A stretch of DNA of 64,000 nucleotides from Candidatus Bathyarchaeota archaeon (GCA_963769425.1 CAVYLP010000003.1:29852-93851), one strand, 5' to 3'; shown: positions 1 through 49,017, counted from the first letter of the stretch. The notes: generated from the letters alone by a model not told the origin. Program-made: numbers and translations.

Positions 1-7
1 TGAAGCA

Positions 8-3167: not shown

Positions 3168-4253
3168 TCAACTACTAATGGTTTTGAATTTGTTCTGTAA
3201 CGCTGGATCTTCCTTTATTTGAACCAAGCTTTCCGGATAATAGCTAATAAACCATACCAAGAAAGATGTCACATCAATTTTATCATTCAATAAATGATTT
3301 CTCTTGACACGCCAATCTTGTTTGACACCATTCTCAGATATCAACATTGTAGCGTATTTCAAAGCCTCAGAAGGATTCGAAAAACTATGCAAAAGATCAT
3401 ACTTTTTCTCAAGTTCCAACAGATTACCCATTGTATTCGATAGCGATGAAACGTATACCGAAGGAGTGCCCAATAAGGCGGCTTCAGTCGCCATCGAAGC
3501 CCCCTCCCCCACATAAAGCGATGCATAATACAGTAAATCATGGATATACACTGGATGAATTGTTAATTTGAATTTTTCAATATCGTTTGGCAATTGCCCT
3601 TCGGCACTCACAAAAACTTTTCCATACTTCGATAATTCTTCAATAAATGCCATTTTATCAAGAATTCCTGTTTGACGAACATCATGTGTGGCGGTCCAAG
3701 CACTGAATCGGATAATTGTGAACTTATCCTCAATCTTAAGGCTAAGCATATCAAGAACAGCTGGATTTGGTGAAAACCATCTTGGGTGAAGATAAACTAT
3801 TTTTTGATCCCCTTGATACCTGATTTGTTTTGAACCTAAATTTAGCTTATAGTTATCAGGGGTAAAAATGACGCTCGTGAAGGGTGCGTACAATCTATAC
3901 TGTTCTCTCGAGTGCTCCGTATCTTCAAAAGTAATCGATGGTTTTTTTAATAGCCAGGCTACATGTGCTGCACGAACCTATCCAAGACCGATGAAAATAT
4001 CTGGCTTAAAATCCAATGCGGCTTTATACAGTTTTAAATCCATCAAAGGCATGTTCAATAATTTCTTAGTAATAGAATCGCCGTAATTACCAAAGTTGAT
4101 ATAATTAACACCATAGCAATCCAATAACTCAAAAACAATAGGTCTACCTGACGCTATAACTAATACTTTATTACCTAATCGCTCCATTTCACGGATAAAA
4201 TATTTGAAAAAGTGAACATGAGCAGGATGATTAATATCCGTAATGATATTCAA
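3168..4253 (-). pseudogene. DUF354-like protein (a predicted glycosyltransferase/epimerase-like family) interrupted by an in-frame TAG
   Basis: ORFs 3978..4253 and 3168..3893 are in the same frame on the minus strand. Translation reads ...IFIGLG * VRAAHVAWLLKKPSITFEDTEHSREQYRL-YAPF... through a TAG at 3978-3980. The C-terminal ORF starts at TTG. Confidence 0.55.
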
Positions 4254-4299
4254 TACACTCTAATATTATAGAATTGTTTTCTAAATATCAATTGAATGG

Positions 4300-5295: not shown

Positions 5296-5298
5296 AAG

Positions 5299-6063
5299 TT
5301 ACCCTCCTCTAAAAATACGTATAGCCAATTTACCCGAGTTAAACAAATTATCTAAACACCAACTTATTACAAATTCAGAATAATTCGTTGCCCATCTTTC
5401 AGGGTGAATATTTAAATATAATTTAGAAAAGGACTTTGTGGAAATTACTTTTATTAAATCATTTGTATTTCTTATTTTAATCGAATTTATATCAGTTTTA
5501 ATGTAGTCCCTTAAATTGTTTTTATTATCCCAGCTACGTCCAGCATCCGTATAATAATCTATATCAGAAATAGATAGACTACCATCGCCAAGCAAATTAA
5601 AATCTTCAAACTTTACATTTTCCCAAATAGAGCTGCTCACATATCTCGACAAGGGCCGCCCATGCATGCTAATCGTATTAACATAGCATATTTTTCTAAA
5701 TTCTTCGAGCTCTTTCTTAAAAACATTAATGGCTTCAAATTGGTCACCATTTGTCTTGCAGAGCGTCTCATAATGATAGCCAATCTCATGCCCCATAACC
5801 GAAATTGATCGAATAATATCCTTATCAAAAACTCCAGAAGAATATCTAAAATAATATGTCGCTGAAATTCCTAAATTGTATTCCAGTTCAGCCATTTTTA
5901 AGGCATTCTTGGGCTTTCGGTCAACATCATGTCTTAAAATTATAAATCCATCCACCGGATGAGATTTTAAATATTCTTCTACGGTAATGAATCTATATCT
6001 AGAAATAATATTACACAGTTCTTTATACTTAGCTAATGTAAAATCAAGAGTCATATAGCTCAC
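5299..6063 (-). CDS. Polysaccharide deacetylase-like protein (carbohydrate esterase 4 superfamily-like)
   Basis: RHDVDRKP motif and His-rich metal-site residues (HEIGYHYE). It is separated by only 3 nt from the upstream FemAB-like gene. Confidence 0.5.
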   Translation of the reverse strand: MSYMTLDFTLAKYKELCNIISRYRFITVEEYLKSHPVDGFIILRHDVDRKPKNALKMAELEYNLGISATYYFRYSSGVFDKDIIRSISVMGHEIGYHYETLCKTNGDQFEAINVFKKELEEFRKICYVNTISMHGRPLSRYVSSSIWENVKFEDFNLLGDGSLSISDIDYYTDAGRSWDNKNNLRDYIKTDINSIKIRNTNDLIKVISTKSFSKLYLNIHPERWATNYSEFVISWCLDNLFNSGKLAIRIFRGG

Positions 6064-6204
6064 ATCGTAATGAATTAACGATCATAATTCTATTATTAAA
6101 TAGTATGCAATTTATTAAGAGTACGTTTCGCCGTTATTACAATGATTGCCAACCTAAATAAGAAAACAGTATTACTTTGAAGAACTCGTGCTAACTAATG
6201 AGTA

Positions 6205-7203
6205 TTAAAAAAATCGCCTTTTAAGGAGCCTCAAATACACTGACTCTGCGAATTTACCCCGTATATTCTGTTTCCTAACGGTATAAAAAGCGGTAAGTTT
6301 CGGTCCAAATTTTGATTTATATGTGGCAATTCCTTCTTTGTTAGCGCCTACAAAATCTATTTTTAGGATGCCTTCCTGCTTACATTTTTTTATGTTTTCC
6401 CAAGTGAGCAACTCATTTACAGGTATTTTTCCTTCAGGTCTTACGCTTCCAAGCCAATCCATGTAAGTATCATTGTGCCATAGAACAACTTCAGATCCGA
6501 CTATATCCTCGCCATTTTTTACTAAGTGGATGCATATATTATCTGGAAATAGTGCCCTAAGTTCGTTTAAATAATCTTTACTATATAATGGAATTGTTAA
6601 TCCTTGTTCAATATATCTCTTTGAAATCATACCAAATACAAGATCACTTTTATCAGTTTCAACTATTTTTATATTCAATTCTTCCGCTTTTCTTATTTTA
6701 GAACGTTTCTTAATATTAATACCCTTCCAAATTGTATCTATATCGGAAGATAAGTCTAGGATATATGTATAGTTAACATTCACATCATATCCACCCCAAA
6801 TTAACTGTCTAGTATCAATAATATCAGGCATGAACGAAATAAATATGTAATCGGGGTTTAATTGTTCTAATGTTTTAGAGAAATCATCATAAATAATCTT
6901 GAGATATTCTTCCTGTTTCTCTTGGTTAAAATCATAAAATGTGTCTTTAAGGGCATATCCAAGATAGGGTATACTAGCTCTCGGCGGTGGTGAGAATAAC
7001 ATCTTAACGGAATATTGTTGTTTATAGAAAACAGGGAATAAGCAAAACAGTTCATCGGTCTTAAAAAAACCGTAGGTTAACAAATCGAATCCAGAGTATT
7101 TAGCCGTTGTTTTAAGAAAATCCCAACGATGAAATATTGTTGAGTGACTGCAATCCTTAATGAATTTATCCCAGACCTGCGGGTCATCAATTATTTTTAT
7201 CAA
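6205..7203 (-). CDS. FemAB-like acyltransferase, paralog of 4300..5295
   Basis: C-terminal ...GILKIDFVGANKEGIATYKSKFGPKL resembles the FemAB signature. Size is similar (332 aa). Confidence 0.55.
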   Translation of the reverse strand: MIKIIDDPQVWDKFIKDCSHSTIFHRWDFLKTTAKYSGFDLLTYGFFKTDELFCLFPVFYKQQYSVKMLFSPPPRASIPYLGYALKDTFYDFNQEKQEEYLKIIYDDFSKTLEQLNPDYIFISFMPDIIDTRQLIWGGYDVNVNYTYILDLSSDIDTIWKGINIKKRSKIRKAEELNIKIVETDKSDLVFGMISKRYIEQGLTIPLYSKDYLNELRALFPDNICIHLVKNGEDIVGSEVVLWHNDTYMDWLGSVRPEGKIPVNELLTWENIKKCKQEGILKIDFVGANKEGIATYKSKFGPKLTAFYTVRKQNIRGKFAESVYLRLLKRRFF

Positions 7204-7291
7204 AAGGCCAGTCCTCGGACTCTATCTAACAGCTCAAAGATAAATTGATTATTATTAACCATATATATTATTCTTAACTTAATTATGTACA

Positions 7292-8332
7292 ATGAATTAC
7301 GACATATTGAAATCAAGTGATAAAATTTGGGACATCTACACGGTAAAAAATGATTATCAAATTAATGAAACTAATAATAATTTAAAACGCAACTCTGAAA
7401 TAATAAAAAATCCTCTGGCCTCAGAATATCTATTTAAAAATGAAAAGGTGCCCGAATATCCAAATGGGGAGGGATTTGCTTTATGTCTTACACACGACGT
7501 CGATGAAATTTACTTTCCATGGAGCCATTTACTACAAGCCATAATTTATTACGCCAAAAAAATGAATACGCATGGAATAATAAATTCCTTCCATTGGAAA
7601 TTTCGTAAAAAAGAGAGTCCATATCTAGATTTTAAAAAGATACTCGATCTTGAGAAAACATACAATGTTAGATCCACATTCTTTTTCCTAGCAACTGAAA
7701 AAGATCCCATCAGATTTCGATATGTCATTGAAGACGCAACGGAAATCATCAAAGATATTCAATCAGAAGGATTCGAAATAGGACTTCACGGTGGATACTA
7801 TGCTTACAATAATCTTGAGGACATCATTCAACAAAAAATTAGACTCGAAAGAGTTTCTAACAGCCAAGTAATTGGTTACAGGAATCATTATCTAAATTTT
7901 AACGTCCCTCAGACATGGTATTATCTGACAAAAGCGGGATTTACATATGATTCAACCATCGGATACAACACAAATAACGGATTCAGAAATGGCATGTGCC
8001 ACCCATACAAACCATATGATCGGAATATTAATAATTATATAAATATTATTGAAATTCCCCCAATTATCATGGACTCTGCATTTCCAAAAGGCACACTAGT
8101 AACTAATTGGTGGGAATTAAAGAAGATGTTAAAAGTTGTCGAGAAAAATCACGGGGTTCTCACCGTTAATTTCCACAACGAAGTGTTTCACGCCCCCTAC
8201 AAAGCAGACTTCATGAAGCTGTACGTGCATCTCCTGGAGGAAGGGAGAAGAAGAAAGGCTTGGATGACAAATGCCTCCGAGATACATGACTGGTGGAGAA
8301 AAAAATATATCGAGGAAGATATTATCACATAA
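7292..8332 (+). CDS. Polysaccharide deacetylase-like protein, paralog of 5299..6063
   Basis: LTHDVDE motif near the N-terminus and GLHGGYY His motif. 346 aa. Confidence 0.5.
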   Translation: MNYDILKSSDKIWDIYTVKNDYQINETNNNLKRNSEIIKNPLASEYLFKNEKVPEYPNGEGFALCLTHDVDEIYFPWSHLLQAIIYYAKKMNTHGIINSFHWKFRKKESPYLDFKKILDLEKTYNVRSTFFFLATEKDPIRFRYVIEDATEIIKDIQSEGFEIGLHGGYYAYNNLEDIIQQKIRLERVSNSQVIGYRNHYLNFNVPQTWYYLTKAGFTYDSTIGYNTNNGFRNGMCHPYKPYDRNINNYINIIEIPPIIMDSAFPKGTLVTNWWELKKMLKVVEKNHGVLTVNFHNEVFHAPYKADFMKLYVHLLEEGRRRKAWMTNASEIHDWWRKKYIEEDIIT

Positions 8333-20169: not shown

Positions 20170-20279
20170 TTGGTGCCGGGAATGGGAATTGAACCCATGG
20201 TCTCTATCCGGCTAAGGCACTGGTGCCTATAACCTCTGGATCATGAGTCCAGCGCATTAGCCAAGCTATGCTACCCCGG
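20170..20279 (-). tRNA. tRNA-Met/Ile2 (anticodon CAT) with an approximately 31-nt intron at a non-canonical position (variable-loop / T-arm junction). CCA is genome-encoded.
   Basis: Minus-strand read GCCGGGG-TA-GCAT-AGCTTGGCTA-ATGC-G-CTGGA-CTCATGA-TCCAG-[AGGTT...GAGACC insert]-ATGGG-TTCAATT-CCCAT-TCCCGGC-A-CCA. The acceptor, D, anticodon and T stems all pair. The extra 31 nt contains a GGCAC-CA-GTGCC hairpin. Confidence 0.6.
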
Positions 20280-20319
20280 CCCTTCTGACCCATACACACT
20301 GCACAAATTTAAATCCTGA

Positions 20320-32615: not shown

Positions 32616-32932
32616 AGCGATGGGACCTATACCCTATTTCGCTCGCGCGTATCATACTCAGATTTTTTCAGATTTCTAAGCTTTGAGAGTTCAAACGACA
32701 GCCTTGTACTACCCCCGCAACTTTTCAATTAAACTAAATATTATTTGGTTTAAAATACTTTTTCGCAAACGATGAAGGGCTTATGGCAAGAAGACCATAA
32801 TGCTCTCGTGATATTAATTGAAAAATTTATGTCGATTTAGAAATAAAATAATTATTTATTTATATTGATGATATTTTTTGAATATCAAATCGAGCAGAAT
32901 TTTTATATCTAAAATAAGAAGATGAATAATGT

Positions 32933-33841
32933 ATGATCAAAAGTAATAGAAGTAGATTGATACAAACCCAGGTTATGGCACAAATAGCGCCTCCAATTCT
33001 TGAGTCACAAGCTGGTTTCAATGGGGGCTATCTAACAACGTGGGATGGGAGGGCAAAGCACGGTGCTGGCCCTGGAGGTATCAAATATAACGTAAGATTG
33101 GGATCACCATGTTTGGGTTGGCCAGAGACGGAGTATCTTGAACCTGGGGTATCATTAAAAGAGGTTGAGGCAAAGGCTGCACCATATCAGAATCCCTCCA
33201 GCTTTTCGACTACTATGCATACGGTATGCTGTCTAGGCAATGAAGCTAGACTTGTATCCGGGGACGCAAAGAGTAGAAAAGGTGTAATTATAGGTAAGAG
33301 CGATAGACACGTCCTCGCTGAATTCTCTGATAAGATACTTGAGGACCTCACGATTGGTGACCATGTTCGTATCATAGCTGAAGGTGTGGGACTCGAAGTT
33401 GAGGGCTTTGAAGGCAGCGTCTTTAACATGTCAGGAGAATTTCTCGACTCATTAAATCTAAGTTTGAATGGGGGAAAACTTGTATTCCCTGTCGCCAAAA
33501 TCATTCCGGCTTATGCTATGGGAAGTGGGGTCGGTGGATCAGAGGCCCAGAGGGGTAACTTTAGTATTCAGAGTAATCCGCCGGAGCTTGTTGAGGAACT
33601 AGGAATTGCGGATTTGAAGATGGGTGATTTCGTTGCTCTCAAGGACATTCTGATGCATTATGGGAAGGCTTACCATAGAGGTGCGATTACGGTAGGTGTA
33701 GTGATGACTGGAGCGAGTGATAACGCTGGGCATGGTCCTGGTGTACTGGCGCTTGCTTCATCAAAACCTGGTATGATCCTCCCCGACGTAGATAGATCAG
33801 CAAACCTAAGGCGCTACATCGATGTGACCTACTATGATTGA
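32933..33841 (+). CDS. Uncharacterised protein, paralog A (302 aa)
   Basis: Full-length similarity to 33834..34703. Shared motifs are DGxxxxGxGPGG/NG, GxPCxGW, CxGNEA, SGDAK, GDxVxxK, MGSG and GHGPGV. Confidence 0.6.
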   Translation: MIKSNRSRLIQTQVMAQIAPPILESQAGFNGGYLTTWDGRAKHGAGPGGIKYNVRLGSPCLGWPETEYLEPGVSLKEVEAKAAPYQNPSSFSTTMHTVCCLGNEARLVSGDAKSRKGVIIGKSDRHVLAEFSDKILEDLTIGDHVRIIAEGVGLEVEGFEGSVFNMSGEFLDSLNLSLNGGKLVFPVAKIIPAYAMGSGVGGSEAQRGNFSIQSNPPELVEELGIADLKMGDFVALKDILMHYGKAYHRGAITVGVVMTGASDNAGHGPGVLALASSKPGMILPDVDRSANLRRYIDVTYYD

Positions 33842-34703
33842 GACCAATAAGGATCGACTCGTAAAGGTTGCCGTAATGGGCGAGGTTAATATGCCTTGGG
33901 CTAATGAGACCTACTCCACGGCGTTCGATGGTTCACCAAGAATTGGGAATGGACTTAGGCTTGGTATGAATGGAGTAAAATGTAACATCAAGATAGGTGA
34001 CCCATGCGCTGGCTGGGTTGAGGGTGAGCACGTAGAGCCTGGAGTGAGCGTCGCGAACCCAGATAATTTGCAGAACAACGCTCTCGCAGTACTCGCGTGT
34101 GTTGGCAACGAAGCCACGGTAAAATCCGGGGATGCCAAGGGAGCTAATGGAGTAATAACCGGTAAACACGGTCCATTTCATGTCCACTTCCGCGCAAAAG
34201 ATAAAGCGAACATCTCGATCGGCGATAAGGTCCAGTTCAAGGCTTGGGGGGTTGGATTAAAGATCAAAGGTTATGAAGATGTGAATATACATAAGTGCGG
34301 ACCAGAACTTCTCGAAAAAATGGGGATAGAGATCAAAAATGGTCGACTGCTTGTGCCAGTCGTCGCTGAGTTCCCTGCCGAGATCATGGGATCAGGCTAT
34401 GGTATGTCCCCACACTCAATCGACTACGACATCCAGAGCACGTGCCCAGATGTTGCTGTTGAGCTGGGTGTAGATAGGCTGCGCCTCGGCGACTTCGTTG
34501 TTTTAAGGGACCAGTTAAACGATTATGGTAGGGGATATTACAAGGGTGCAGTTAGTATAGGAGTCGTAATCCACGGCTGGAGTAATCACCCGGGACATGG
34601 ACCAGGCGTAACTACGTTAATCAGCGCGAGACCTGGCAGGGTAATGACCACAATCAATCCTGAAGCCAACATCGTTAATGCCCTAAATCTTAGTTTGGAT
34701 TAA
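33834..34703 (+). CDS. Uncharacterised protein, paralog B (289 aa). Its start overlaps the end of paralog A by 8 nt.
   Basis: See paralog A. Tight overlap indicates co-translation. Confidence 0.6.
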   Translation: MIETNKDRLVKVAVMGEVNMPWANETYSTAFDGSPRIGNGLRLGMNGVKCNIKIGDPCAGWVEGEHVEPGVSVANPDNLQNNALAVLACVGNEATVKSGDAKGANGVITGKHGPFHVHFRAKDKANISIGDKVQFKAWGVGLKIKGYEDVNIHKCGPELLEKMGIEIKNGRLLVPVVAEFPAEIMGSGYGMSPHSIDYDIQSTCPDVAVELGVDRLRLGDFVVLRDQLNDYGRGYYKGAVSIGVVIHGWSNHPGHGPGVTTLISARPGRVMTTINPEANIVNALNLSLD

Positions 34704-35121
34704 TCCCGGAATTCGTCGTCTTTGAATCATTTTTAGGACCAGAATATATGCGGATCCCAATCGCACCGCCAAATATAAATGCGATTAGTATGAGGAAATC
34801 ATTTACATTAATAGAAATACCACTAATGAATAGAAAAAGAGAGTAAAATAAATAGGCAATAAAACCCAATAGAACACCGACAGAGACATTAGTGTCTGGA
34901 TAACGTCTCTTGAATAAATTTGATACTGCAACTCCGCTTAATAATGAAGAGGAAAATATCACACCAAAATAAAGGTAGGGGTCAGCAGTAATGAACGTAA
35001 CTAAAATGAGGGCCATAATATAAGCAGGCGTTGCTTCTAATACTCCCCCTGATACATAAATTTGTAATGGAGTTTTAGTAGTTTTTTCTAAATTTTCCAC
35101 GTTAATACGATGAATCAACAC
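34690..35121 (-). CDS. Small polytopic membrane protein (143 aa)
   Basis: ORF with four hydrophobic segments. AT-rich. Confidence 0.35.
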   Translation of the reverse strand: MLIHRINVENLEKTTKTPLQIYVSGGVLEATPAYIMALILVTFITADPYLYFGVIFSSSLLSGVAVSNLFKRRYPDTNVSVGVLLGFIAYLFYSLFLFISGISINVNDFLILIAFIFGGAIGIRIYSGPKNDSKTTNSGINPN

Positions 35122-35225
35122 AATAAATATCTTTTGAGACGAGCACGGCTCATATGGTGAATTTTCCAGAATCCATCACGATGAAGGGCTTTTGGTCTTG
35201 CTTCGTCACGGTGATTGTAGGATGC

Positions 35226-36119
35226 TCAACTAGTAGAATCCATATGGGTCTTTGATGGGTAAAAGCTCCCTCCAAAAGCCACATGTATGGTACCTATCAC
35301 CTTCTCTGCCTCGAGGAACTCATCGACGAGTCTTGCTTTCGGGTTTATTCCAAAGGAGAATTCTCCCAAGTATCTCGACCCAGGGTCTCTTCGAAGTTCC
35401 TCCTCTATTCGACTCTTGATTTTCTTGTCGCTACATTTGACTAAGCCTGCTTTGCCATTTTTGGAACTGATCTCGACTGGAGTTTCGCGGTAGAGTCTGT
35501 CGAATCCGCCTGATGTGCAGACAAGTTTTCCATCAAATGAGTCACCCACGGGAGGCATGCACATAACTTCACCACATGGTAGGTTGCCACCGTATTCTAC
35601 TATGAATTCATGGTCTATTCTGAATGTGAAGTCGGCGCCTAACTGGCTCTGTACTCTAACCTTCTTTGTATCCTTCAGTTTCTCTCTGAGCTTCTCGCCG
35701 AAGGCAAACATCGACTCGTATTCAGCATCTGTAAGGGAAGCAGCGCCCTCTGTGAACATGTCTATCGTTAGACCTGGGCAGTGACAGATTCTTGCTGATT
35801 TATGCCGTTCGAGTTTGTTGAACTGGATCCTGTAGGCTGTCTCTTCACCAGAGTTTCTGAAGAGGTTAATATACAGGTCTGGTTTATTTGCAGCAATTAG
35901 CTCCTTCGTGTGATCATCAAGTTTGGTTCGTATGTTGCTGCTTGTATCCATCATACATAACTTCGTCCAGAGACCGAGTTCGAGTGTAGCCCTCGAAAAT
36001 AAGTCTCCAAGTGGCTTCAACTCTGAGTCGCAAAATATGAGGGCTGATTCACCCACAGTAGCGTCTCGTGTGTTAAAAAGTGCAGTCTTAACTGCTGAAA
36101 GGGCATCCAATCGAGTCAC
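35226..36119 (-). CDS. M29-like (aminopeptidase T/AmpS-type) metallopeptidase-like protein. It is the last gene of the membrane-module operon.
   Basis: Overall resemblance to thermophilic aminopeptidase family M29 (tentative). The start overlaps the upstream gene by 4 nt. Confidence 0.4.
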   Translation of the reverse strand: MTRLDALSAVKTALFNTRDATVGESALIFCDSELKPLGDLFSRATLELGLWTKLCMMDTSSNIRTKLDDHTKELIAANKPDLYINLFRNSGEETAYRIQFNKLERHKSARICHCPGLTIDMFTEGAASLTDAEYESMFAFGEKLREKLKDTKKVRVQSQLGADFTFRIDHEFIVEYGGNLPCGEVMCMPPVGDSFDGKLVCTSGGFDRLYRETPVEISSKNGKAGLVKCSDKKIKSRIEEELRRDPGSRYLGEFSFGINPKARLVDEFLEAEKVIGTIHVAFGGSFYPSKTHMDSTS

Positions 36120-36817
36120 ATCTCGTATCCCATCGATTTTCTCAACAGATTCCTCGTTTTCAGTACATAGACGGTTGCTACGATGACGACTATCATTCCG
36201 ATTGTGAGGTACATGTTATCGGAATTCAGAAGCATTACCATCCTTCCATTCACTAGAGCAGTTCTGCTCATGAAGGTGTTAGCGAAGTAGGCACCGAAGG
36301 CGATGTATATCAGGTAGTATCCGATGCGGGACGTCGTTCCCAAGGCTCCTGTGTGTGGCCTCGAGAAGTAGAAGTACAGCAGAGAGGTTATCACAGTGAC
36401 AACCACCAGGATGTTCTCAAGAGATTGCGTCAGGTTTCCGGTGATGAATAGAGGCACTATTGTCGCTTGGATCTGGCTTGTGAGACTGACTTCTATCACT
36501 GCCCTCAATGTGATGCCCATACCGACGCCTATGGAGAGCGCGATTGGGTATCTTGCTACCCATCGATATTTCTCTGTGTACCTGAGATACGTTGCTAAGC
36601 CAAGGAGAATGGGGATTATGACTAGATAGTTTCCGCTCTGTAGTGGAGTTATACCGTAGTCCATGATGAAGCCTATCGCAGCCACGAGGGCGAAGGCTTG
36701 GGCTGTAGCAACGAATGTGTGTTCAGCGAAGACTGTGAAGGGATTATCTTTGAACAACATACTGAAAATGCATAGGGTGAAGAAGACTACAAGTAGACTA
36801 TCTAAACCAATGACCAT
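36116..36817 (-). CDS. Polytopic membrane protein (233 aa)
   Basis: About 6 hydrophobic segments. Translationally coupled with its neighbours. Confidence 0.5.
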   Translation of the reverse strand: MVIGLDSLLVVFFTLCIFSMLFKDNPFTVFAEHTFVATAQAFALVAAIGFIMDYGITPLQSGNYLVIIPILLGLATYLRYTEKYRWVARYPIALSIGVGMGITLRAVIEVSLTSQIQATIVPLFITGNLTQSLENILVVVTVITSLLYFYFSRPHTGALGTTSRIGYYLIYIAFGAYFANTFMSRTALVNGRMVMLLNSDNMYLTIGMIVVIVATVYVLKTRNLLRKSMGYEM

Positions 36818-37632
36818 TACTTCTTACCTCCTATCCCCACGAAGTACACTATATTGCCAATAACCACGGCTGCTATCAGCCATAGGTGGGCGATTGAGAG
36901 AACGTCGGTGCTCTCTACTCCTAGACCGGGGGTTTTTGTCAGTATCTCGAATTCGCCTGCTCCTCTGACGCTGGAGAGCAACCCAGAGATCTGGCCTGCT
37001 TGGAAATATGGAAGCATAGTAGGCAGCATAACACCTGTTTCGCCGGCTATGACTTTGTTATTAAATTTCTGTTGGAACTGCATGAGGAAACTAGTGGCGC
37101 TAGCTGAGCCTGAATCGAATGTTATTATCAGTGTTATGTCAGCACCGGTTTTTACGTTATCGAGGAAAGTTCCGGAGATCGAGTTACCGTAGTAATCATT
37201 GTGCACAACACCGTGGAAGTTAGTTGCTAATGCGGCTAACCCAGTGTCCCAACCCGCGACGTACCCTATATTGACATAGTCTTGACCGTATTTTTTCCCT
37301 TCCAAGTTAACGTTTTTCAGAGTATAGTCGATCCACTGAGAACCCATAGTCCATGCGCTAAAGTAGATCACCTTGAGGGGTCTGGTCATTAGAAACTGTG
37401 TGGTGTCGAGGACTTGTGGGCCCAGTTCGCCCCAGGATGCTGCGTCGCCACCGTAGTGGACCAGCACGATGCTGCCTGATGGTAAGTTTACAACGGTGTT
37501 ATAGTAGTCCTGAGTATACTGGCTTACCGTTATCGGTAATCCTAGTGGGTGAAGTATAGGGATAGCTATGGCTATGAACATGATTATGTACACTATTCGC
37601 TTCTGGTTTTGGTAGCCATTTAACCAACTCAT
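36817..37632 (-). CDS. Bitopic membrane protein with a large extracytoplasmic domain (271 aa)
   Basis: N-terminal TM segment, central soluble domain (LVHYGGDAASWGELGPQV...) and a C-terminal TM ending in GIGGKK. Confidence 0.5.
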   Translation of the reverse strand: MSWLNGYQNQKRIVYIIMFIAIAIPILHPLGLPITVSQYTQDYYNTVVNLPSGSIVLVHYGGDAASWGELGPQVLDTTQFLMTRPLKVIYFSAWTMGSQWIDYTLKNVNLEGKKYGQDYVNIGYVAGWDTGLAALATNFHGVVHNDYYGNSISGTFLDNVKTGADITLIITFDSGSASATSFLMQFQQKFNNKVIAGETGVMLPTMLPYFQAGQISGLLSSVRGAGEFEILTKTPGLGVESTDVLSIAHLWLIAAVVIGNIVYFVGIGGKK

Positions 37633-37637
37633 TCAAA

Positions 37638-38276
37638 TCACTTCTCCGAAGTTCCGGCCAGGAAACCATACTCCTTGCCGGTCATGACCCTTAGAGCGAG
37701 GGCAACTGCAGCCAATGTGATACTTATGCCAATGCCTCTGCTCACGCCCATTGTTGGATAATTTAATATGAATGTGCCAATTGGGTCGAATCCTCCCCAT
37801 ATGATTGCACCGATAGGTGCGTTTTTCAAGAGAACTATAAATGCGGATATGAGGAGCAGTGATGACTCGATGCTCTTGAATCTGAATGATTTGTAGGCTG
37901 CGGACGCCATGTAGAAGAGGGCTATTGAGTAGAATGTGGCGCTAAGTGGGGAGTACACGTTATTGTATATGTAGCTTGAGATATCACCCGAGTTCCCCTG
38001 AATTACGCCTATGATCGAAGTTATAGAGGTCAATAGAATAAACCAGGCGGCATAGTACCATCCAGGTCTTCTTTTAGCAATTTTTTTCCCGTAATTCTGA
38101 AACATGTTGATGAAACCGAGTCCGATTGCGAAAGCTGCTATAACTGTTCCCCAGTTGGTTAGTTGATCGGTGGTTGCCCTAAGGATGGGTATATCGAGGT
38201 TCCAATCTAAGAGGAAAACGATGATTGCTATCGCTGTGATTGCTATCGATATCTCCTTACGTTTATACCATGACAT
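37638..38276 (-). CDS. Polytopic membrane protein (212 aa)
   Basis: About 6 hydrophobic segments. Confidence 0.5.
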   Translation of the reverse strand: MSWYKRKEISIAITAIAIIVFLLDWNLDIPILRATTDQLTNWGTVIAAFAIGLGFINMFQNYGKKIAKRRPGWYYAAWFILLTSITSIIGVIQGNSGDISSYIYNNVYSPLSATFYSIALFYMASAAYKSFRFKSIESSLLLISAFIVLLKNAPIGAIIWGGFDPIGTFILNYPTMGVSRGIGISITLAAVALALRVMTGKEYGFLAGTSEK

Positions 38277-38287
38277 TTCAATGCCTC

Positions 38288-39076
38288 CTAAACGCTAAGA
38301 AGTATGGATACGATGTTGTATCCGAATATTGCAACCACAGCACCGACGACGATTAAACCGACAACAAAGATTTTGCCCCAGTCTTGGCCACGAAGGCTTC
38401 CTATCTCCACGGGATCCTTTGAGAGATAAGCTCCAGCTGCATAAAGCTCCTCACCGATAAGTACATAATCAGCTATACAAGCCAGCACTGCCGTCTGCTG
38501 ATAGTTTTGGCCGCTGCCAGCGATGACGATAGCCCCAACCGACTCCGCTTCCTCACTCAAAGCCAGTTGTTCGGGGCCATACAGTCCAGTGAAGGCGGCT
38601 GCGGCAATGTTTTTTTCGTGGATCAGCCCTATTTGGCCGGTAGCCCACGCAAACTGGTCTTCTGAGAGGAATATCACATTCTCTGGTTTAAAGTCCTCAA
38701 TTCTTCCCTCGTCATCGTAGGCGTTCCTAACAGTTTCGACAGCCTGAGGGTAGATGATAGATGTCCCTATGTCTCCACCAGCGGGGACGTATAATGTTGT
38801 ATGTGTGCGCGCTGCAATTTTGGCAATATAACCCGTTATGCTCAAGGCCGCTAGCGTGTTTGGGCCAAAACTATCTAAACCATAGCCACTCATAACAGGG
38901 CGGTTCATCTCCGAAGACCTTTCAACAGCCTCCTCGATAGCATCTAGTGCGGCAACTTTTCTGATATATGGTAACTCCTTGGCTTTTCCAGCCTGCGTCA
39001 TCAGATAATAAATCACTAAAAAAAGTCCGATGAGCACGGCAAATGGAAAAGCCTTGCCAGGGAATAACAGTAACAA
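38288..39076 (-). CDS. Bitopic membrane protein with a soluble central domain (262 aa). It is the first gene of the module.
   Basis: N- and C-terminal TM segments. It is preceded by a 245-bp, roughly 25% GC intergenic region (39077-39320). Confidence 0.5.
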   Translation of the reverse strand: MLLLFPGKAFPFAVLIGLFLVIYYLMTQAGKAKELPYIRKVAALDAIEEAVERSSEMNRPVMSGYGLDSFGPNTLAALSITGYIAKIAARTHTTLYVPAGGDIGTSIIYPQAVETVRNAYDDEGRIEDFKPENVIFLSEDQFAWATGQIGLIHEKNIAAAAFTGLYGPEQLALSEEAESVGAIVIAGSGQNYQQTAVLACIADYVLIGEELYAAGAYLSKDPVEIGSLRGQDWGKIFVVGLIVVGAVVAIFGYNIVSILLSV

Positions 39077-39320
39077 TTTAAGTCAGATTAATCGATATTT
39101 GTGATACATATTAATAACTTTCCATTAAAACTTATTTCATTTGAGGAAAAATTTAGTATTTTTTAGTCAATTAAGTAATATTCACGACTGATTAACTGGA
39201 TGAAATACTATTTTTATCAATTATGTCATATTTTAAAACACTAATACTTACTTATTATTTAACTTAATAACCATCAATTTTCTAACTTACTGCCGGGAAG
39301 AGAATGATATGAATAAGTTA

Positions 39321-40475
39321 TCACTCATCTAGTACCTCAATGTTCGCTCTCGGCAGAGTCACCCGCTTCCCGTTATTTAGTTCAACCTCGACTACCCTCA
39401 CGTCTGCTTCTGTCTCAACCTTGTGAAGATTGATTGGCAGACTAATGACAGTGCCATTCTCCCCGAAATAGGGGGTCTGAATCACTCTTACAGGGGTTCC
39501 AACCCTCATAGTCGATGGAGCTTCTTCTTTCTCGTCTGTGGGGGGTGTTTCCTTGTTCGGAATGATGATCTCTGGACGTTGAACACCGGCCCTGATCTGG
39601 GTGGCGCCATTGATGTGGGCTAGATATCCGTTGAACTCGTTGAAGAGGTCAAAGGTTCTCTTCGACATCGCCATCTTGCCGAAGCCCTCGGTGATGATCA
39701 GGGTTAACCCAATTTCTTCTTCCCCGGTTATCGCCACTCCGATAGCGTGGCCTATAAAGCTCGTCAAATCTTCCTCTTTAATGCCTCCCGAGATTATGCC
39801 TGATACGCCGAGTTCAACAGCTTTTTTTAACGTCTCGAAGGTGACGATTCCCCCCGACACAAGTATGTTACCTTTATGTTCGGACTGAATCGCATCGGCT
39901 GAAAGTTGATCCTCTGGGGAACTTACCATCACAGCAATATTGCCGTGTGCCTCTCCGCCTACACCGAATATTCCCTGGATGAAAGCAGCCTCCGTCTCTA
40001 TTACGGCGCCAACATCTTCGATGATCTCACTGACCCTTCCAGGAACATATGCGTTCACACTGATGGGCTCCGGGTGAGTCCTGACAATGATCCTACCCGT
40101 CAAAGCTGAAACATTATCAACTACGCCATCTATTGGAGACCTAACGAATTTTTTTATGAGTCCAAACATCGTTATGCACTGCGCGATAACCTCGTTCTCT
40201 TTGACAGGGTCACCAACCTTCTTCACTAAGTAACTCTCGAGCTCCTCAGAATCAACGTTCAGAATACCCGCTGCTTTAAGGATGTAGGGTCTTCCCGGCA
40301 TTTTTACCTCGGCCACAACGGTGTCGTAGTCGACGACGTCCCCCAGTTTGACAACGACGTTGCCGTGCATTGGCAACTTCCTGATCTTCTTTACATCCAC
40401 TCTTCTCTTGACTTTCAGGCCGGGTGAGTAAGCTTGTGCCTCGGAGGCAACCGCGTCGGTTTCGATAATTGTCAT
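39321..40475 (-). CDS. Uncharacterised protein (about 384 aa from MTIIETD...) partnered with a MutL-family ATPase
   Basis: Its start lies 4 nt downstream of the upstream stop. N-terminal beta-clip/SAF-like segment (VKLGDVVDYDTVVAEVKMPG), Gly-rich central region (GIVTFETLKKAVELGVSGIISGGIKEE) and a C-terminal KOW-like region (RVGTPVRV). No family was recognised. Confidence 0.45.
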   Translation of the reverse strand: MTIIETDAVASEAQAYSPGLKVKRRVDVKKIRKLPMHGNVVVKLGDVVDYDTVVAEVKMPGRPYILKAAGILNVDSEELESYLVKKVGDPVKENEVIAQCITMFGLIKKFVRSPIDGVVDNVSALTGRIIVRTHPEPISVNAYVPGRVSEIIEDVGAVIETEAAFIQGIFGVGGEAHGNIAVMVSSPEDQLSADAIQSEHKGNILVSGGIVTFETLKKAVELGVSGIISGGIKEEDLTSFIGHAIGVAITGEEEIGLTLIITEGFGKMAMSKRTFDLFNEFNGYLAHINGATQIRAGVQRPEIIIPNKETPPTDEKEEAPSTMRVGTPVRVIQTPYFGENGTVISLPINLHKVETEADVRVVEVELNNGKRVTLPRANIEVLDE

Positions 40476-40479
40476 CAGT

Positions 40480-42291
40480 TTACACCTCCTTGTTCGGGTA
40501 AAGCCCCAGCGATTCATTCCAGGTTTTTATCTTTCGTTTACAGAGCTCTGGGCTTTCTGGGAATCTTATTGGTCTCCCCCTCGCGTCGATGTAGACCCCG
40601 ACGACGCCGCCTTGTATGGTTGTTTTCAGGGTTTTCCCGGGCCCAGCCCCAACATCGAAACCCCGCGAAGGTGTGATCACCGCCTTCGCCTCATGCCCCT
40701 CGGGGAGGGAAACCTTCACTATCTCACCGAACTTTAGCTCTTTATCCACTTTAGAGCCATCGGGTATCTCAAAGTTGACCCTTAGTGCCTCCGCTCCGAA
40801 CTCAGCTGTGCCGACTGGAGCGATGACAGTTCCAACCCTCACAAGGCAATCTTTGTCGAATATCTGCCATGCCGCATCCGGGTGGATTGTAGAGAGAACG
40901 CCGAGGTGAGGCATCATGAAGACGCTGTCTTGGAAGATCCTTGTAACGCCCTCTGGTTGAAACGCGTCGGTCATTATGAGCATCGACTGCTCGCGTCTTG
41001 GGGCATGTGAAAGGAGGCCTCCGGTACCAGCTATAATTCTTATCTTCATCATGTCTATGTATGACTCTGCAAGCTCCTGGTTGAGGATCTGGTCGAGGTC
41101 CCTCTTCTCACCGACGCCCTTGAGGCGTGTTGCTATGCTTTTATGGTGGACTAGTCCTAGCCTAAGGGCCTCCCTAGCGACAGCGTGTTCCAAGATCAAG
41201 TTATCTAGTGTATGAGGTATGATTGTGGGCCGGATCATCTTATTCATGAGCCTGTTCTTAACCTCAGATTCGTCGAGGTCGAATGGGAGCCACCTCACAA
41301 TATTCTCGACACCTGTCTCGAGGAGCACGTTACATATGCTGTAGCTCATCCCGAGGTTGGCGCTGACGCTCCTCACGAACCTCCCATCAAAGATCGAGTA
41401 GATATTTGTGGTGGCTCCACCTAGCCCCACACCTAAAACGTTCTCCTTGAATGTGTTGGCGATGAGCTGCATCGCCATCCCCTCGCCGCCGGGGGTGGGC
41501 ATTATGTCGATGTTTGTCCACTTCATCAGATCGGGATACCCTGGGGCGTGGGACATTACATGCTTCATGAATATCTCGTGTATGGCTCGTCTTGCGGGCT
41601 CTGTGTTCTCCACATCCAGTTTCGGTCGCAAATTCGGGACGCTTGTGAAGTCGAAGTCCTTGCACAAGATCTCCTTAACCTCCTCGGTGGCATCTTTGTT
41701 ACCCGCGTAGAGGAGGGGGAGGCTATAATCTACCCCGAGCCTCGGTTTAGGCTCCGCCGCCTTAATCAGCTCCGCGGTTTCGAGAACGACCTTTATCGCG
41801 CCGCCATCCGTTCCTCCTGCTAATAGGATCATGTCTGGCCTGAGGCTTCGAATCCTCTGTATTTTGACGTAGTCTGGCCGCAGGTCGTTAGTGGCGATCA
41901 CATCCATGACCATCGCTCCGGCGCCGAGTGCAGCCCTGTTCGCGCTCTCAGCGGTGATCCCTTTCATCGCGCCGGCGACCATCATCTGCAATCCACCACC
42001 AGCGCTACTCGTTGTGCAATAGATGTCCACGCCCGAGTCGTTGATGCACGGCATCGAGATCCCGTGTCCATCTGGGGAGAGTATCTTATGGTTGGTCAAT
42101 TCTTCGATCTCCTTGATGGCGTTCTTAACACCCTGGGTTACGTTCTCGAAGGGTGCTTCCACGGTTGTAGGTGCCTCACCGGCTACGACGAATCTCCACC
42201 CGTCCGCCCTGTTGGCAAAGAAGCGGGCCTTAGTGGTTGTGCTACCGACGTCGGTTGCCAGAATGTACCGAGCCTCCTCGAGTGGCTTCAT
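40480..42291 (-). CDS. MutL/GlmL-family ASKHA-fold ATPase (glutamate-mutase accessory protein-like) with an extra C-terminal domain of about 140 aa
   Basis: N-terminal LATDVGSTTTKARFF (phosphate-1), LLAGGTDGG and GVGLGGATTNIYS (phosphate-2/adenosine motifs) as in glutamate mutase component L. 603 aa, against about 460 for GlmL. Confidence 0.6.
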   Translation of the reverse strand: MKPLEEARYILATDVGSTTTKARFFANRADGWRFVVAGEAPTTVEAPFENVTQGVKNAIKEIEELTNHKILSPDGHGISMPCINDSGVDIYCTTSSAGGGLQMMVAGAMKGITAESANRAALGAGAMVMDVIATNDLRPDYVKIQRIRSLRPDMILLAGGTDGGAIKVVLETAELIKAAEPKPRLGVDYSLPLLYAGNKDATEEVKEILCKDFDFTSVPNLRPKLDVENTEPARRAIHEIFMKHVMSHAPGYPDLMKWTNIDIMPTPGGEGMAMQLIANTFKENVLGVGLGGATTNIYSIFDGRFVRSVSANLGMSYSICNVLLETGVENIVRWLPFDLDESEVKNRLMNKMIRPTIIPHTLDNLILEHAVAREALRLGLVHHKSIATRLKGVGEKRDLDQILNQELAESYIDMMKIRIIAGTGGLLSHAPRREQSMLIMTDAFQPEGVTRIFQDSVFMMPHLGVLSTIHPDAAWQIFDKDCLVRVGTVIAPVGTAEFGAEALRVNFEIPDGSKVDKELKFGEIVKVSLPEGHEAKAVITPSRGFDVGAGPGKTLKTTIQGGVVGVYIDARGRPIRFPESPELCKRKIKTWNESLGLYPNKEV

Positions 42292-42550
42292 GTCGTTCCC
42301 CTACCTTTCTTTAGATGAACTTAAAAAAACTCCTTTCTGTTTTACTCACTTTAGACAAAAACAGTAGCGATGATTAAGAAACGTGGTCATCTTGTTTCAT
42401 TTTCGACACAAATTAATGAATTTCCACAATGAGAGACACTGAATTTCTAATACAAACACATTTTTACTATCTATCGAAGTCGCCGACTAGGATAGGTCGT
42501 AAATTATTTCTCCTCAACTCCCAGATGGACTAACCAGGAGTGTCGATGAA

Positions 42551-44359
42551 TTGGATGAGTTCTCGATTCTGATAACGGATACCGCCGTTGTCGATGGATC
42601 AGGTAAGCCTCCATACAGGGCTAGCATAGGTATAAGGGGAGACAAGGTCGAGCAGGTCGGTATGGTGAAAGGAGACGCCGTGACCGAGATCGACGGAAAG
42701 AAGCTCACAGCCATTCCGGGTTTTATAGACTCACACAGTCACGGGGATTTCAACATCCTCTTCTTCCCCCGTTGCGAAAGTTATCTCTACCAGGGCGTCA
42801 CCACGATGGTGACTGGACAATGCGGCATGTCCCCCGCCCCGATAGGCGATAAGATCACCCTACCAGGGATCGCAGAGTATTACCAGTTCGAGCTCGAACC
42901 CTACAAGTACGAGCCCACTCACACCGTCTACCCACGTGAGACAGTCAACAGACTAATGAGGGAGAAATTTGGGTGGACGATAGACTGGCACTCAATGGCT
43001 GACTGGTTCAAAGTAGTAGAAGAGAAGAAGACGTCGATCAACCTCGCAACCATGGTCGGTCACGTTACGGTAAGGAGGACCGTGATGGAGGATGATTTTG
43101 AGAGGCCGGCTAAAAAGGAGGAGAGGGATATGATGGCGTCACTGATCCGAAGGTCCCTAGATGAAGGGTGCATCGGTTTATCCATGGGTCTCGACTACGA
43201 CCCGGACACCTTTGCCGACAGGGAAGAGCTTGTTGATGCGTGTAAAGTAGCCGCAGAGTACGGAGCCATCTTCGTCCCCCACTCCCGGAGGACGGGGAGG
43301 CGCAAAGGCGTAACCGCGGGTCAGAGGCCACACGACAAGATCGATGCCATAAACGAGGTCATTGACCTCTGCCGCGCATCCAAGGTGCGCATGAATATCG
43401 CCCACCTCTTCACAGGCTGGTACATTAACCCGGACACCAGTTCGACGCTGGAGGAGGCGAATAGGAGAGCTACCCTCAAGGTCATAGACGACGCGATCAA
43501 GGAGGGACTCGATATCAGCTTCGATGCGCTCCCAAGTTGCATGACCTCAGTCTATGGAGGCGCCGCCTTCCTCTGCGGCAGCTTTGAACCATGGGTCAGG
43601 GAGAAGGGAAGCCGAGCCGAGTTCGCGAAGTGGCTCAATGTAGAAGAGTACAGGCAGGAGATAAAGGACGCCGTAAAGGCGGGTAAGTGGTACACGAGAG
43701 AGGGACCCAATATAAATCCCCACTGGGCTGAAGGCATGACGATACTGAGACATAGGGACCCAAACACAATAAACAAAACGATCGCAAAGATAGCGGAAGA
43801 GAGGAGCAAAGACCCCTACGACGTCTGGTTCGACCTGATAAGGGAGGATCCAGATGCCCTATGTGGACATCCATTCACGTATCCCGGAGGACCGCCAGAC
43901 CTTAACGCCGAATACCATAAAGTATTCTGGCAGCACCCAGCCGTGCCCTAGGGATCGTTCATGCAGACGTATACGATTACCAGTATGAACCCCCGGTCCC
44001 CACCTACATGCTGCCCATGGTCATGTTTTACTCAGCATTCCCCCATCATTCCTAGAGAAATTCGTGATTCGCGAGAAGATACTCACGATAGAACAGGCAG
44101 ATACAAAACCTCGACGCAGCCCGCGAAACGCTACGGTCTAAAGGGAAGAGGCGAGATAAAATCCAGATCCTTCGCCGATGTCGTTCTTCTAGAAATGGAC
44201 AAGCTGAAGGTAAACGGAACACCCTTGGAGCCGAAGAAAAAACCATCAGGCATACCTTATGTCATCGTCAATGGCTCGGTGGTGATTGAAAATGGTGAAC
44301 ACACTGGTGCAAAGCCAGGCCAAGTGATCAGGAAGGCCTATAGCCTCCCATCTTCTTAA
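42551..44359 (+). pseudogene. D-aminoacylase (N-acyl-D-amino-acid deacylase, amidohydrolase superfamily) with an in-frame TAG and a garbled segment before the C-terminal domain
   Basis: N-terminal PGFIDSHSHGDF metal-binding motif. C-terminal ...GLKGRGEIKSRSFADVVLL...GIPYVIVNG lies in the same frame after TAG 43949-43951. The segment 43952-44130 fits the family only if further indels are assumed. Confidence 0.6.

Positions 44360-46781: not shown

Positions 46782-49017
<2,236 letters not shown>

Follow-up and report, generated by a model that had tools for sequence, protein, structure and literature searches.

The analysed stretch of DNA (the window, 64,000 nucleotides of a Candidatus Bathyarchaeota archaeon) carries a cassette of four tightly coupled membrane-protein genes, A to D, that recurs in invariant order in archaea and in several bacterial phyla and belongs to no described system. 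The explanation that we favour, with slightly less than even confidence, is that A to D would encode a new heteromeric uptake system for amino acids or nitrogen solutes. The analysis establishes the gene order, conservation, topology and fold class of the cassette, and the functional proposals are built on these.

Organization and conservation of the cassette

Five tightly packed ORFs, A to E, lie on the minus strand (Table 1). Their existence as coupled genes, as first proposed, was borne out: A/B and B/C are separated by gaps of 11 and 5 nt, C/D overlap by 1 nt, and D/E overlap by 4 nt, the start of E running over the stop codon of D. Each of the five proteins is already a called gene in public collections. 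Since the homologues of A, B, C and D are numerous, these four are genuine genes and not chance ORFs. The 143-aa membrane ORF that follows E may belong to the transcription unit as its sixth gene; no relatives of it occurred among the fetched loci.

Table 1. Positions of the cassette genes and neighbouring features in the window.
Feature	Position	Strand	Remarks
Membrane ORF, 143 aa	34690..35121	-	~28 nt downstream of repaired E
Gene E, M29-like, 297 aa as called	35226-36119 (35150..36119 repaired)	-	PF02073 match
Gene D, 233 aa, six TM helices + C-terminal seventh	36116..36817	-	
Gene C, 271 aa	36817..37632	-	bitopic
Gene B, 212 aa, six TM helices	37638..38276	-	hydropathy on alignment, K+R counts
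Gene A, DUF6754 (PF20539), 262 aa, TTG start	38288..39076	-	
AT-rich spacer, 244 bp	39077..39320	-	22.5% GC; between 384-aa gene and gene A
Conserved cytoplasmic protein (up398)	39321..40475	-	cassette-linked; alignment 60% mean column identity
MutL/GlmL-family ASKHA ATPase, 603 aa	40480..42291	-	PF13941, 392 bits

The spacer ahead of gene A is presumed to hold the promoter and leader of the cassette. Its AT-richness had been recognized correctly, but the surrounding region is not at about 58% GC as was stated: the value is 46.7% for the operon, 52.4% for the genes upstream and 46.9% for the whole window. Because intergenic DNA of comparable AT content is found at other places in the window, such as 32701-32900, the spacer is not exceptional for this genome. 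In two relatives (L010 and L011) it is likewise AT-rich and about 200 bp long, with a scarcely conserved sequence. A scan of 33000-43000 gave no Rfam match at E<=1, neither in the spacer nor elsewhere. With no Rfam element, such intergenic DNA common and the assumed background wrong, the idea of a strong or regulated promoter was not upheld.

Conservation extends to four genes. In all 48 metagenomic copies with enough sequence (copies of A with at least 2.6 kb downstream), A is followed by B, C and D in that order; D is last in every complete copy, and B comes after A wherever the sequence reaches. The median intergenic gaps are 12, 2 and 0 nt. The same order is found in Methanomethylicia archaea, a Firmicutes MAG, a 10.9-Mb genome and other MAGs, and in loci L093 and L095-L099; further named hosts are Armatimonadota, WOR-3, Poribacteria and Stahlbacteria. 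The family is large: A alone falls into at least 1,830 clusters when grouped at 90% identity, and C has 5,462 representatives at 50%. In three loci (L075, L076, L083) the whole cassette is present as a tandem triplet. Of the predicted five-gene co-conservation, the A-B-C-D part stands, but E does not belong to it: the gene is frameshifted and had no homologue beside other cassettes (0 matches in the first 91 loci), so that the conserved unit comprises four genes and not five.

Topology and fold of the subunits

The description of two bitopic proteins (A and C), each with a soluble domain of about 200 aa between TM helices, and two polytopic ones (B and D) holds. Orientations were derived from positive-inside counts, from fusions in A homologues, some of which carry a signal peptide and FN3 domain ahead of TM1, and from one C homologue in which a CARDB domain is inserted into the soluble domain. 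Protein A is predicted to have its N-terminus outside, a TM helix, a cytoplasmic six-stranded Rossmann-like domain, a second TM helix and its C-terminus outside. The predicted layout of C is the reverse, with both termini inside and an extracytoplasmic Rossmann-like domain between the helices. The secondary-structure elements of C occur in the same order as those of A, and both predicted folds are generic Rossmann-like. Judged from alignment and secondary structure only, the conserved residues of A lie in the loops following strands beta1, beta3, beta4 and beta6; neither GxGxxG nor another cofactor motif was found in it. B is predicted to have both termini inside, and the N-terminus of D is probably outside. 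The seventh helix of D is present in the window and in the archaeal versions seen, and its first cytoplasmic loop carries the conserved motif KDNPF(Y)RFAEH. An invariant asparagine in the second TM helix of C (Asn260) is the sole notable conserved polar TM residue in the cassette. The family alignments revealed no conserved charged residue in the TM cores, no conserved Cys in the B and D consensus and no conserved Cys/His clusters.

Only A matches a family, DUF6754 (199 bits against a cut-off of 27, residues 12-256 aligning with profile positions 14-253 of 257), for which no literature was found. For B, C and D no relative was detected in Pfam, NCBIfam or the PDB (for C, by profile against PDB sequences), and B and D belong to no known family. 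The PADLOC models of known anti-phage defence systems (E<=0.01) gave no match for A-E, the two genes upstream or the 143-aa ORF. The original prediction that the module is unlike anything described is thereby sustained, as is its view of a coupled membrane module devoid of an ABC, ECF or Sec signature. No ATPase or solute-binding-protein family was matched by any of the five genes.

A possible uptake system

A functional indication comes from locus L020. There RF00168, the lysine riboswitch, is matched over its full length (85.3 bits, gathering score 30, E=6e-21) and is followed on the same strand by a terminator-like hairpin with a U-run and then by cassette gene A. The genes upstream of the riboswitch are unrelated to lysine biosynthesis. 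Lysine riboswitches govern lysine biosynthesis and lysine transporter genes (PMC5584792). The L020 arrangement thus points to an unrecognized kind of amino-acid transporter, and gives independent support to the import part of the peptide-import idea put forward originally. Among about 95 loci no second cassette was linked to a riboswitch; the closest relatives of the L020 cassette (50-57% identity) lack one, and no RF00168 match was found at the window's own cassette.

The tandem triplets are counted in the same direction because such copies are common among transporter paralogues. No transporter family resembled B or D when 46 sequences of B and 40 of D were searched at E<=1.

In an uptake system of this kind, A-D would be the four subunits of one integral-membrane heteromer, a physical complex that we infer from the invariant gene order and translational coupling only. 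With the N-terminus of B inside and that of D probably outside, the two polytopic subunits would together provide about 12 TM helices and form the path of translocation. C, with its outer domain tethered to the membrane, could capture the substrate in the manner of a membrane-anchored binding protein, and the cytoplasmic domain of A could gate or regulate transport, a role known from the RCK/KTN domains of K+ transporters. In this genome the cassette would have gained a translationally coupled M29-like aminopeptidase gene. Both the transporter function and the individual subunit roles are what we infer from these features.

Several known transporters were compared with the cassette. An ABC transporter was rejected, as no ABC_tran, BPD_transp or ABC-2 match exists in A-E or the adjacent genes, and no ABC-type family recurred among B or D homologues at E<=1. 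An ECF transporter was rejected for want of a CbiQ/EcfT, S-component or ATPase family match. TRAP (DctPQM) and TTT (TctABC) systems resemble the cassette in being multi-subunit and ATPase-free, with an outer alpha/beta capture domain, separate small and large membrane subunits and coupled genes. However, the outer domain of the cassette consists of one Rossmann-like lobe anchored through two TM helices, it has a similar counterpart on the cytoplasmic side, and there are two 6-TM membrane subunits; no DctQ/DctM, TctA/TctB or DctP/TctC match was found in Pfam or NCBIfam. The KtrAB and TrkAH potassium transporters, which combine an RCK/KTN regulatory domain with a membrane subunit, are among the closest systems. 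The L020 cassette occupies the position that the riboswitch-controlled transporters LysP, YvsH, LysW and LysXY take after RF00168 and its hairpin, and B and D are similar in size to the LysE-type 6-TM translocators (about 200-230 aa, six TM helices), but there is no similarity to APC, NhaC, ABC or LysE proteins and the four-subunit architecture is unlike that of any of them.

Linked ATPase and other neighbours

Upstream of the cassette lie a MutL-like ATPase gene and the gene of a cytoplasmic protein whose true start is probably M15, giving 384 aa. The latter has an N-terminal barrel-sandwich hybrid domain (RnfC_N or biotin-lipoyl-like), a central alpha/beta part and a C-terminal KOW-like domain; of 11 homologues, 7 matched RnfC_N and 2 matched KOW. 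Assignment of the ATPase as GlmL, the methylaspartate mutase accessory protein, was rejected, since its scores are below the NCBIfam equivalog cut-offs (GlmL, 211 against 475; Or-4, 209 against 600) and no mutase genes adjoin it. The recurrent link of the cassette to these two genes had been overlooked before. The ATPase is always paired with the 384-aa protein. The pair adjoins a cassette at 13 loci, which represent six or more lineages with A identities of only 33-55%, and its arrangement there is upstream, downstream or divergent. In 26 loci the gene of a small protein, Z (about 110 aa), immediately precedes A or the MutL-like gene. A simple secondary transporter would leave the ATPase, the 384-aa protein and Z unexplained.

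These linkages speak for an alternative that we consider unlikely, namely that the cassette is a transmembrane coupling or scaffold device connecting the ASKHA-ATPase module (MutL-like protein, 384-aa protein and Z) to the exterior, so as to assemble or remodel the envelope or to signal, rather than to transport solutes. A relay across the membrane would go well with the pairing of one domain inside and one outside, and the outward parts of A and C gain surface domains (FN3, CARDB) in some lineages. MreB-RodZ-MreCD is one design to which a scaffold may be compared. The PilM-PilN-PilO and GspL-GspM systems likewise show genetic linkage between an ATPase-like protein of the ASKHA fold and bitopic proteins with far-side domains, but here the ASKHA protein is of the GlmL/hydantoinase branch and does not resemble FtsA/PilM, each bitopic protein has two TM helices and a Rossmann-like instead of a ferredoxin-like domain, and secretin or pilus genes are missing. 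The ATPase pair is moreover not obligate: it occurs in 7 of the 29 loci with at least 4 kb upstream, and within 8-10 kb it was absent from the Methanomethylicia, Firmicutes and large-genome loci. No envelope-biogenesis genes are consistently adjacent, and the L020 riboswitch and the tandem triplication fit a transporter better.

Elsewhere in the neighbourhoods, genes acting on amino acids, peptides or amides recur, which is counted in favour of a transporter: M29-like, M28 and amidohydrolase genes in the window, Amidohydro_1 in L093, L095, L096 and L098, LamB_YcsF in L099, an S9/Tricorn peptidase in L098, and M20 peptidases. The theme is weak, as the 93 nearest neighbours span 106 different Pfam families.

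A less likely reading: membrane-bound enzyme or energy coupling

Somewhat less probable again is a membrane-bound enzyme or energy-coupling complex, synthase/translocase-like or transhydrogenase/Rnf-like, in which A would bind a nucleotide, nucleotide-sugar or cofactor and a group or reducing equivalents would be passed through the membrane to the outer domain of C. The conserved residues of A appear to sit in loops where Rossmann-like domains usually bind ligands. The cassette also shares features with Rnf and Na+-NQR: two small 6-TM subunits, probably of opposite orientation as in NqrD/NqrE and RnfA/RnfE, bitopic subunits with soluble domains, and a peripheral barrel-sandwich subunit, to which the RnfC_N/NqrA_N-like barrel of the 384-aa neighbour would correspond. 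SLBB/Wza-like or sugar-nucleotide genes are found near a few loci. Against this, A has no cofactor motif, conserved Cys or His clusters and FMN or Fe-S motifs are lacking, most cassette loci miss the barrel protein, and only a single lineage has polysaccharide genes as neighbours. Nor would nucleotides be available to an extracellular Rossmann-like domain. Membership of Rnf/Nqr was rejected (no PF02508 match among the 46 B and 40 D sequences at E<=1, no conserved Cys), the same searches gave no PNT or glycosyltransferase match, and the proton-translocating transhydrogenase PntAB was rejected as the PNTB/PntAA families with their NAD(P)-binding dI and dIII domains were not found.

Gene E

The 3' end of E at 35226 is caused by a single-base insertion near position 35237. 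In the +1 frame the reading continues through LLVEHPTITVTKQDQKPFIVMDSGKFTI up to a stop ending at 35150, and the repaired protein of about 322 aa agrees with an intact close relative of 315 aa (P0128), compared with which the insertion cuts the last ~28 residues. A nearby amidohydrolase gene is likewise split into two ORFs, and for this reason the frameshift may be an assembly error. The proposed M29-like aminopeptidase was confirmed in part: E exceeds the Peptidase_M29 (PF02073) cut-off of 27 bits marginally (29.5 as called, 32.0 repaired), but the frame is broken and the match covers only profile positions 192-351 of 406, short of the full two-domain architecture of about 370-410 aa. NCBIfam gave no match, and neither did phmmer against the PDB, solved M29 structures included. 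Judged by eye, E retains M29-like motifs (GEV, GEF, HVAFG and HMD) that may hold the metal-ligand Glu, Glu, His, His and Asp residues. E is best described as a divergent, short protein that appears M29-like. A near-identical 31-kb contig with members of the A, B, C and E clusters is the only likely exception to the absence of E from other cassettes.

A five-component peptide import and processing system with E as an integral partner is improbable: the 4-nt overlap with D, the M29-like motifs and the peptidase and amidohydrolase genes nearby speak for it, but the missing homologues at other cassettes, the frameshift and the marginal, partial M29 match without a PDB relative make E at best a lineage-specific add-on. 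E is a lineage-specific passenger outside the conserved cassette.

Significance

Three of the four cassette proteins have no family and the fourth is a DUF, and the cassette is carried by thousands of distinct lineages. Genome-scale annotation of metabolism and transport in uncultivated microbes at present misses it. If A-D is a transporter, as we tentatively suggest, its architecture would be new, with one tethered Rossmann-like domain per membrane face and two 6-TM subunits. For a hitherto anonymous operon, the L020 riboswitch supplies a hypothesis that can be put directly to the test, namely that lysine or basic amino acids are taken up. The recurrent proximity of a GlmL-like ATPase may also mean that ATP is coupled to a membrane complex in a way not yet described. 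More speculatively, and with a low probability, A+B (domain inside) and C+D (domain outside) could be inverted halves of a new transport machine, energized or regulated in many lineages by an actin/Hsp70-fold ATPase of the GlmL/hydantoinase branch that docks via the 384-aa protein and membrane protein Z. If true, this would represent a new energy-coupling principle, distinct from those of ABC, P-type and V/F-type ATPases.

Organization of the gene cassette

The window was predicted to carry a five-gene module, encoding four membrane proteins (A to D) and an M29-like aminopeptidase (E), and the ORF listing, with five consecutive genes on the minus strand, and the gene junctions agree with this. 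A and B are separated by an 11-nt gap containing a GGAGG motif and B and C by 5 nt, while C and D overlap by 1 nt (TAATG) and D and E by 4 nt (GTGA). Public collections hold the exact sequences of all five as called genes. The spacer that precedes A is indeed AT-rich, and similar AT-rich intergenic stretches are present elsewhere in the window. The background of about 58% GC that had been ascribed to this region was not recovered, since GC content is 46.7% in the operon, 52.4% in the upstream genes and 46.9% in the whole window. An Rfam scan of the spacer gave no match, its alignment with relatives revealed no conserved block that stands out, and in a sigma-70 promoter scan, a model not applicable to an archaeon, sites were rarer than in shuffled sequence. 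Two tandem DUF4438 genes converge on the operon; no homologues of these were found near other cassettes, and nothing relevant was found in the literature on DUF4438.

Features of the window and their positions
Feature	Position	Strand	Description
AT-rich island	1-7300		about 14-29% GC in 200-nt windows
Group-1 glycosyltransferase gene	1886-3118		within the AT-rich island
Polysaccharide-deacetylase-like gene	7292-8332		at the end of the AT-rich island
tRNA	20174-20280	minus	107 nt, CAT anticodon
AT-rich intergenic stretch	32701-32900		example of a stretch like the spacer
Two DUF4438 genes	32933-34703	plus	302 and 289 aa, overlap 8 nt
E	35226-36119	minus	297 aa as listed ORF, GTG start
D	36116-36817	minus	233 aa
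C	36817-37632	minus	271 aa
B	37638-38276	minus	212 aa
A	38288-39076	minus	262 aa, TTG start
Spacer	39077-39320		244 bp, 22.5% GC
MutL-like ATPase and 384-aa protein genes	39321-42291	minus	directly upstream of the spacer
Amidohydrolase, first ORF	42551-43951	plus	part of split gene
Amidohydrolase, second ORF	43961-44359	plus	part of split gene
Region of peroxidase-domain ORF and overlapping ORF	46782-48999	minus	peroxidase-domain ORF of 639 aa
ORF overlapping its 5' end	48616-48999	minus	127 aa

The window is probably archaeal because it contains a CAT tRNA with an insertion and several genes that match NFACT-R_2 and DUF7523, families typical of archaea. The tRNA (55.5 bits in Rfam, not reported by ARAGORN) carries about 35 additional nucleotides after the anticodon arm and looks like an intron-containing archaeal tRNA with a non-canonical intron position. 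The long AT-rich island at the start of the window, which contrasts with 47% GC overall, may have been acquired horizontally as a glycosylation island.

Conservation of the cassette

A genome scan detected A-B-C-D in this order in two bacterial MAGs at 30-42% identity. The same four genes are present in Methanomethylicia archaea (proteins of 268, 217, 276 and 240 aa), in a Firmicutes MAG and in a genome of 10.9 Mb whose A carries an FN3 extension. In relatives of the window with 71% identity the contigs end within C, leaving A, B and only the beginning of C. A metagenome scan with an alignment of A gave 80 loci. Co-occurrence was examined by iterative HMM searches of all ORFs of 91 loci, counting the copies with at least 2.6 kb of downstream sequence, and B, C and D follow A in order in all 48 of these, with median gaps of 12, 2 and 0 nt for A/B, B/C and C/D. 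The claimed linkage of A to D is borne out by this count, and six additional loci have the same arrangement. Complete cassettes occur as tandem triplicates in three loci (L075, L076, L083) and as a divergent pair in another (L024). The A family comprises at least 1,830 clusters at 90% identity, and the C family 5,462 representatives at 50% identity (E≤1e-3), of which 4,335 have E≤1e-10. Source names include Firmicutes, Methanomethylicia, Poribacteria, Stahlbacteria, WOR-3 and Armatimonadota.

The four genes thus stood as a unit, and the inclusion of E in it did not, because iterative HMM searches of all ORFs detected E homologues in none of the first 91 cassette loci. E is a lineage-specific addition outside the conserved module. 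Its match to M29 is marginal and partial (29.5-32 bits, profile positions 192-351 of 406), and phmmer found no match among solved structures. The end of E at 35226 also had to be revised: a single-base insertion (GAT-T-CTA) near 35237, within 35219-35246 on the minus strand, truncates the protein. The +1 frame reads LLVEHPTITVTKQDQKPFIVMDSGKFTI up to a stop ending at 35150, which restores a C-terminus as in P0128, an intact close relative. An obligate five-gene system for peptide import and processing, as originally suggested, is very improbable: E does adjoin D in the window, and the recurrent unit has four genes.

The frameshift in E may be an assembly error, because an amidohydrolase nearby is likewise split into two adjacent ORFs, which divide Amidohydro_3 profile positions 2-253 and 415-472 between them. 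Two genes are thus disrupted within 10 kb, which suggests indels in the assembly or pseudogenisation. Further along, a peroxidase-domain ORF has its 5' end overlapped by a same-strand ORF, perhaps as the result of a further frameshift in, for example, a catalase-peroxidase gene.

Topology and folds of the subunits

Hydropathy plots show A and C to have a single transmembrane segment at either end, as had been claimed for these two bitopic proteins, and B and D to have several. The orientations proposed here are deduced from sequence statistics and domain fusions. For A, an outside N-terminus and a cytoplasmic Rossmann-like domain are predicted, because residues rich in Lys and Arg follow TM1 and because in many homologues (e.g. 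P0088, P0053 and P0089) TM1 is preceded by a cleavable signal peptide and an FN3 domain. One A homologue carries a VanZ domain. The soluble domain of C is predicted to be extracytoplasmic, since a DRR motif precedes TM1, RR/KK follows TM2, and CARDB repeats, which are of an extracellular domain type, interrupt this domain in homologue P0319. Long C homologues tolerate large insertions there, including, besides the CARDB repeats of P0319, a tandem domain duplication (P0262) and coiled-coil-like inserts in others. For B, six TM helices and an inside location of both termini are predicted. In D the odd-numbered loops carry the positive charge and therefore imply an N-terminus outside, with six TM helices and a seventh in the window and archaeal versions seen. 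The complex would have a similar soluble domain on either face of the membrane, together with two six-TM subunits of probably opposite orientation.

AlphaFold models from deep alignments are confident for A (pLDDT 91.9) and C (pLDDT 93.1) and have the same order of elements: a TM helix, a helix, six beta-alpha units and a long C-terminal TM helix. The six units are modeled as a Rossmann-like sandwich; a GxGxxG motif was not found in A. Paralogy of A and C was considered, but a collinear hhalign alignment of 105 columns (score 26.0, E=0.0099) is not significant because reversed-sequence controls reach 27.8. What A and C have in common is only architecture and fold class. Comparison of B with D gave nothing above controls, and no score for internal 3+3 TM repeats exceeded them.

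A is a clear member of DUF6754 (199 bits in Pfam), for which no mention was found in the literature searched under this name or PF20539. B, C and D have no match in Pfam or NCBIfam, and profiles of 40-47 homologues each retrieved no sequence relative from the PDB. Permissive Pfam scans with 46 B and 40 D sequences returned scattered hydrophobic noise only, and PADLOC defence-system models gave no match. These profile checks are in agreement with the claim that the module is new to description.

Recurrent neighbors

Clustering of the remaining ORFs of the cassette loci revealed three recurrent neighbors, one of which is the ATPase pair described below. A small protein, Z, of about 105-130 aa with a hydrophobic central stretch and no Pfam match, is encoded in 26 loci, usually immediately 5' of A or of the MutL-like gene (e.g. 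L013:5009-5362, L035:5665-5982 and L079:4230-4574). Its consensus reads ...LIEKLA..IV.R.LE.PAILFLE..KPL.F.GSQ...RENVE.LI.RIE.L. A TM protein of about 150 aa is present in seven loci, and both proteins are absent from the window. When the 93 other neighbors closest to the cassettes were surveyed with Pfam, 106 families were counted, none of them dominant.

The ASKHA ATPase of the MutL/GlmL family and the 384-aa protein form an invariant pair, located beside cassettes in 13 loci (L010-L013, L016, L030, L044, L058, L069, L070, L081, L085 and L091); among the 29 loci whose upstream sequence reaches 4 kb or more, 7 carry it. The lineages with the pair are diverged, their A proteins sharing only 33-55% identity. 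Against the GlmL and Or-4 equivalog models the MutL-like protein stays far short of the cut-offs, and it represents a distinct subfamily; nothing relevant was found in the literature on PF13941 or on GlmL in a membrane context. The 384-aa protein, whose probable start is Met15 of the ORF as listed, is highly conserved, with 60% mean column identity in the alignment. It belongs to no known family and has an N-terminal RnfC_N/biotin-lipoyl-like barrel and a KOW-like C-terminus. PDB profile searches with A and with both members of the pair gave no meaningful match. The cassette could be a trans-membrane scaffold that joins the ATPase module to the exterior. The recurrence of the pair in diverged lineages, in varying arrangements relative to the cassette (upstream, downstream or divergent), is consistent with this. 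We consider such a scaffold unlikely.

A lysine riboswitch upstream of one cassette

Rfam scans at gathering threshold of all fetched cassette loci, about 720 kb, detected only one riboswitch, a lysine riboswitch (RF00168) in locus L020. The aptamer (3058-3243, on the plus strand as the cassette) is full-length, covering model positions 1-182, with a score of 85.3 bits (gathering score 30, E=6e-21). It is followed at about 3271-3303 by a terminator-like hairpin, GUGAGCGACC-CAGAC-GGUCGCUUAU, and a U-run (GUUUUUG). Gene A starts 3' of both at 3413, followed by B and by C up to the contig end. Of the two upstream genes, one encodes a protein resembling those of poly-gamma-glutamate synthesis (capsule biosynthesis) and the other a hydrolase of the CocE/NonD type; neither belongs to lysine biosynthesis. 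Genes under the control of lysine riboswitches are those of lysine biosynthesis and of lysine transporters (PMC5584792). For a set of four membrane proteins, a role as transporter is much more likely than one as biosynthetic enzyme. The link to the cassette comes from this single instance; no riboswitch was found with the closest relatives of the L020 cassette (50-57% identity) or, by Rfam, in the window.

Possible functions

Tests for membership of ABC, ECF, TRAP/TTT, Rnf/Nqr, Pnt, known lysine transporters and defence systems placed the cassette in none of these; for ABC and ECF this agrees with the lack of an ATPase or solute-binding-protein signature reported at the outset. Several of these systems are resembled in design principles only. 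A membrane enzyme or energy-coupling complex is an unlikely further alternative. The cassette appears new at the level of sequence, and B and D may yet adopt a known membrane fold.

We tentatively favor uptake of amino acids or related nitrogen compounds by a heteromeric system, a reading that is plausible while falling a little short of probable. It is based on the L020 riboswitch, the tandem paralogous cassettes and a loose theme among the neighbors (peptidases, amidohydrolases and a 5-oxoprolinase subunit). In such a system the tethered outer domain of C would capture the substrate, B and D would form the translocation path, and the cytoplasmic domain of A would provide gating or regulation. 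The analysis itself establishes gene order and breadth of distribution, along with predicted topology and fold class; assembly into a complex, transport and the subunit roles are inferred from these. The tandem triplicates imply paralogous specialisation within the family.
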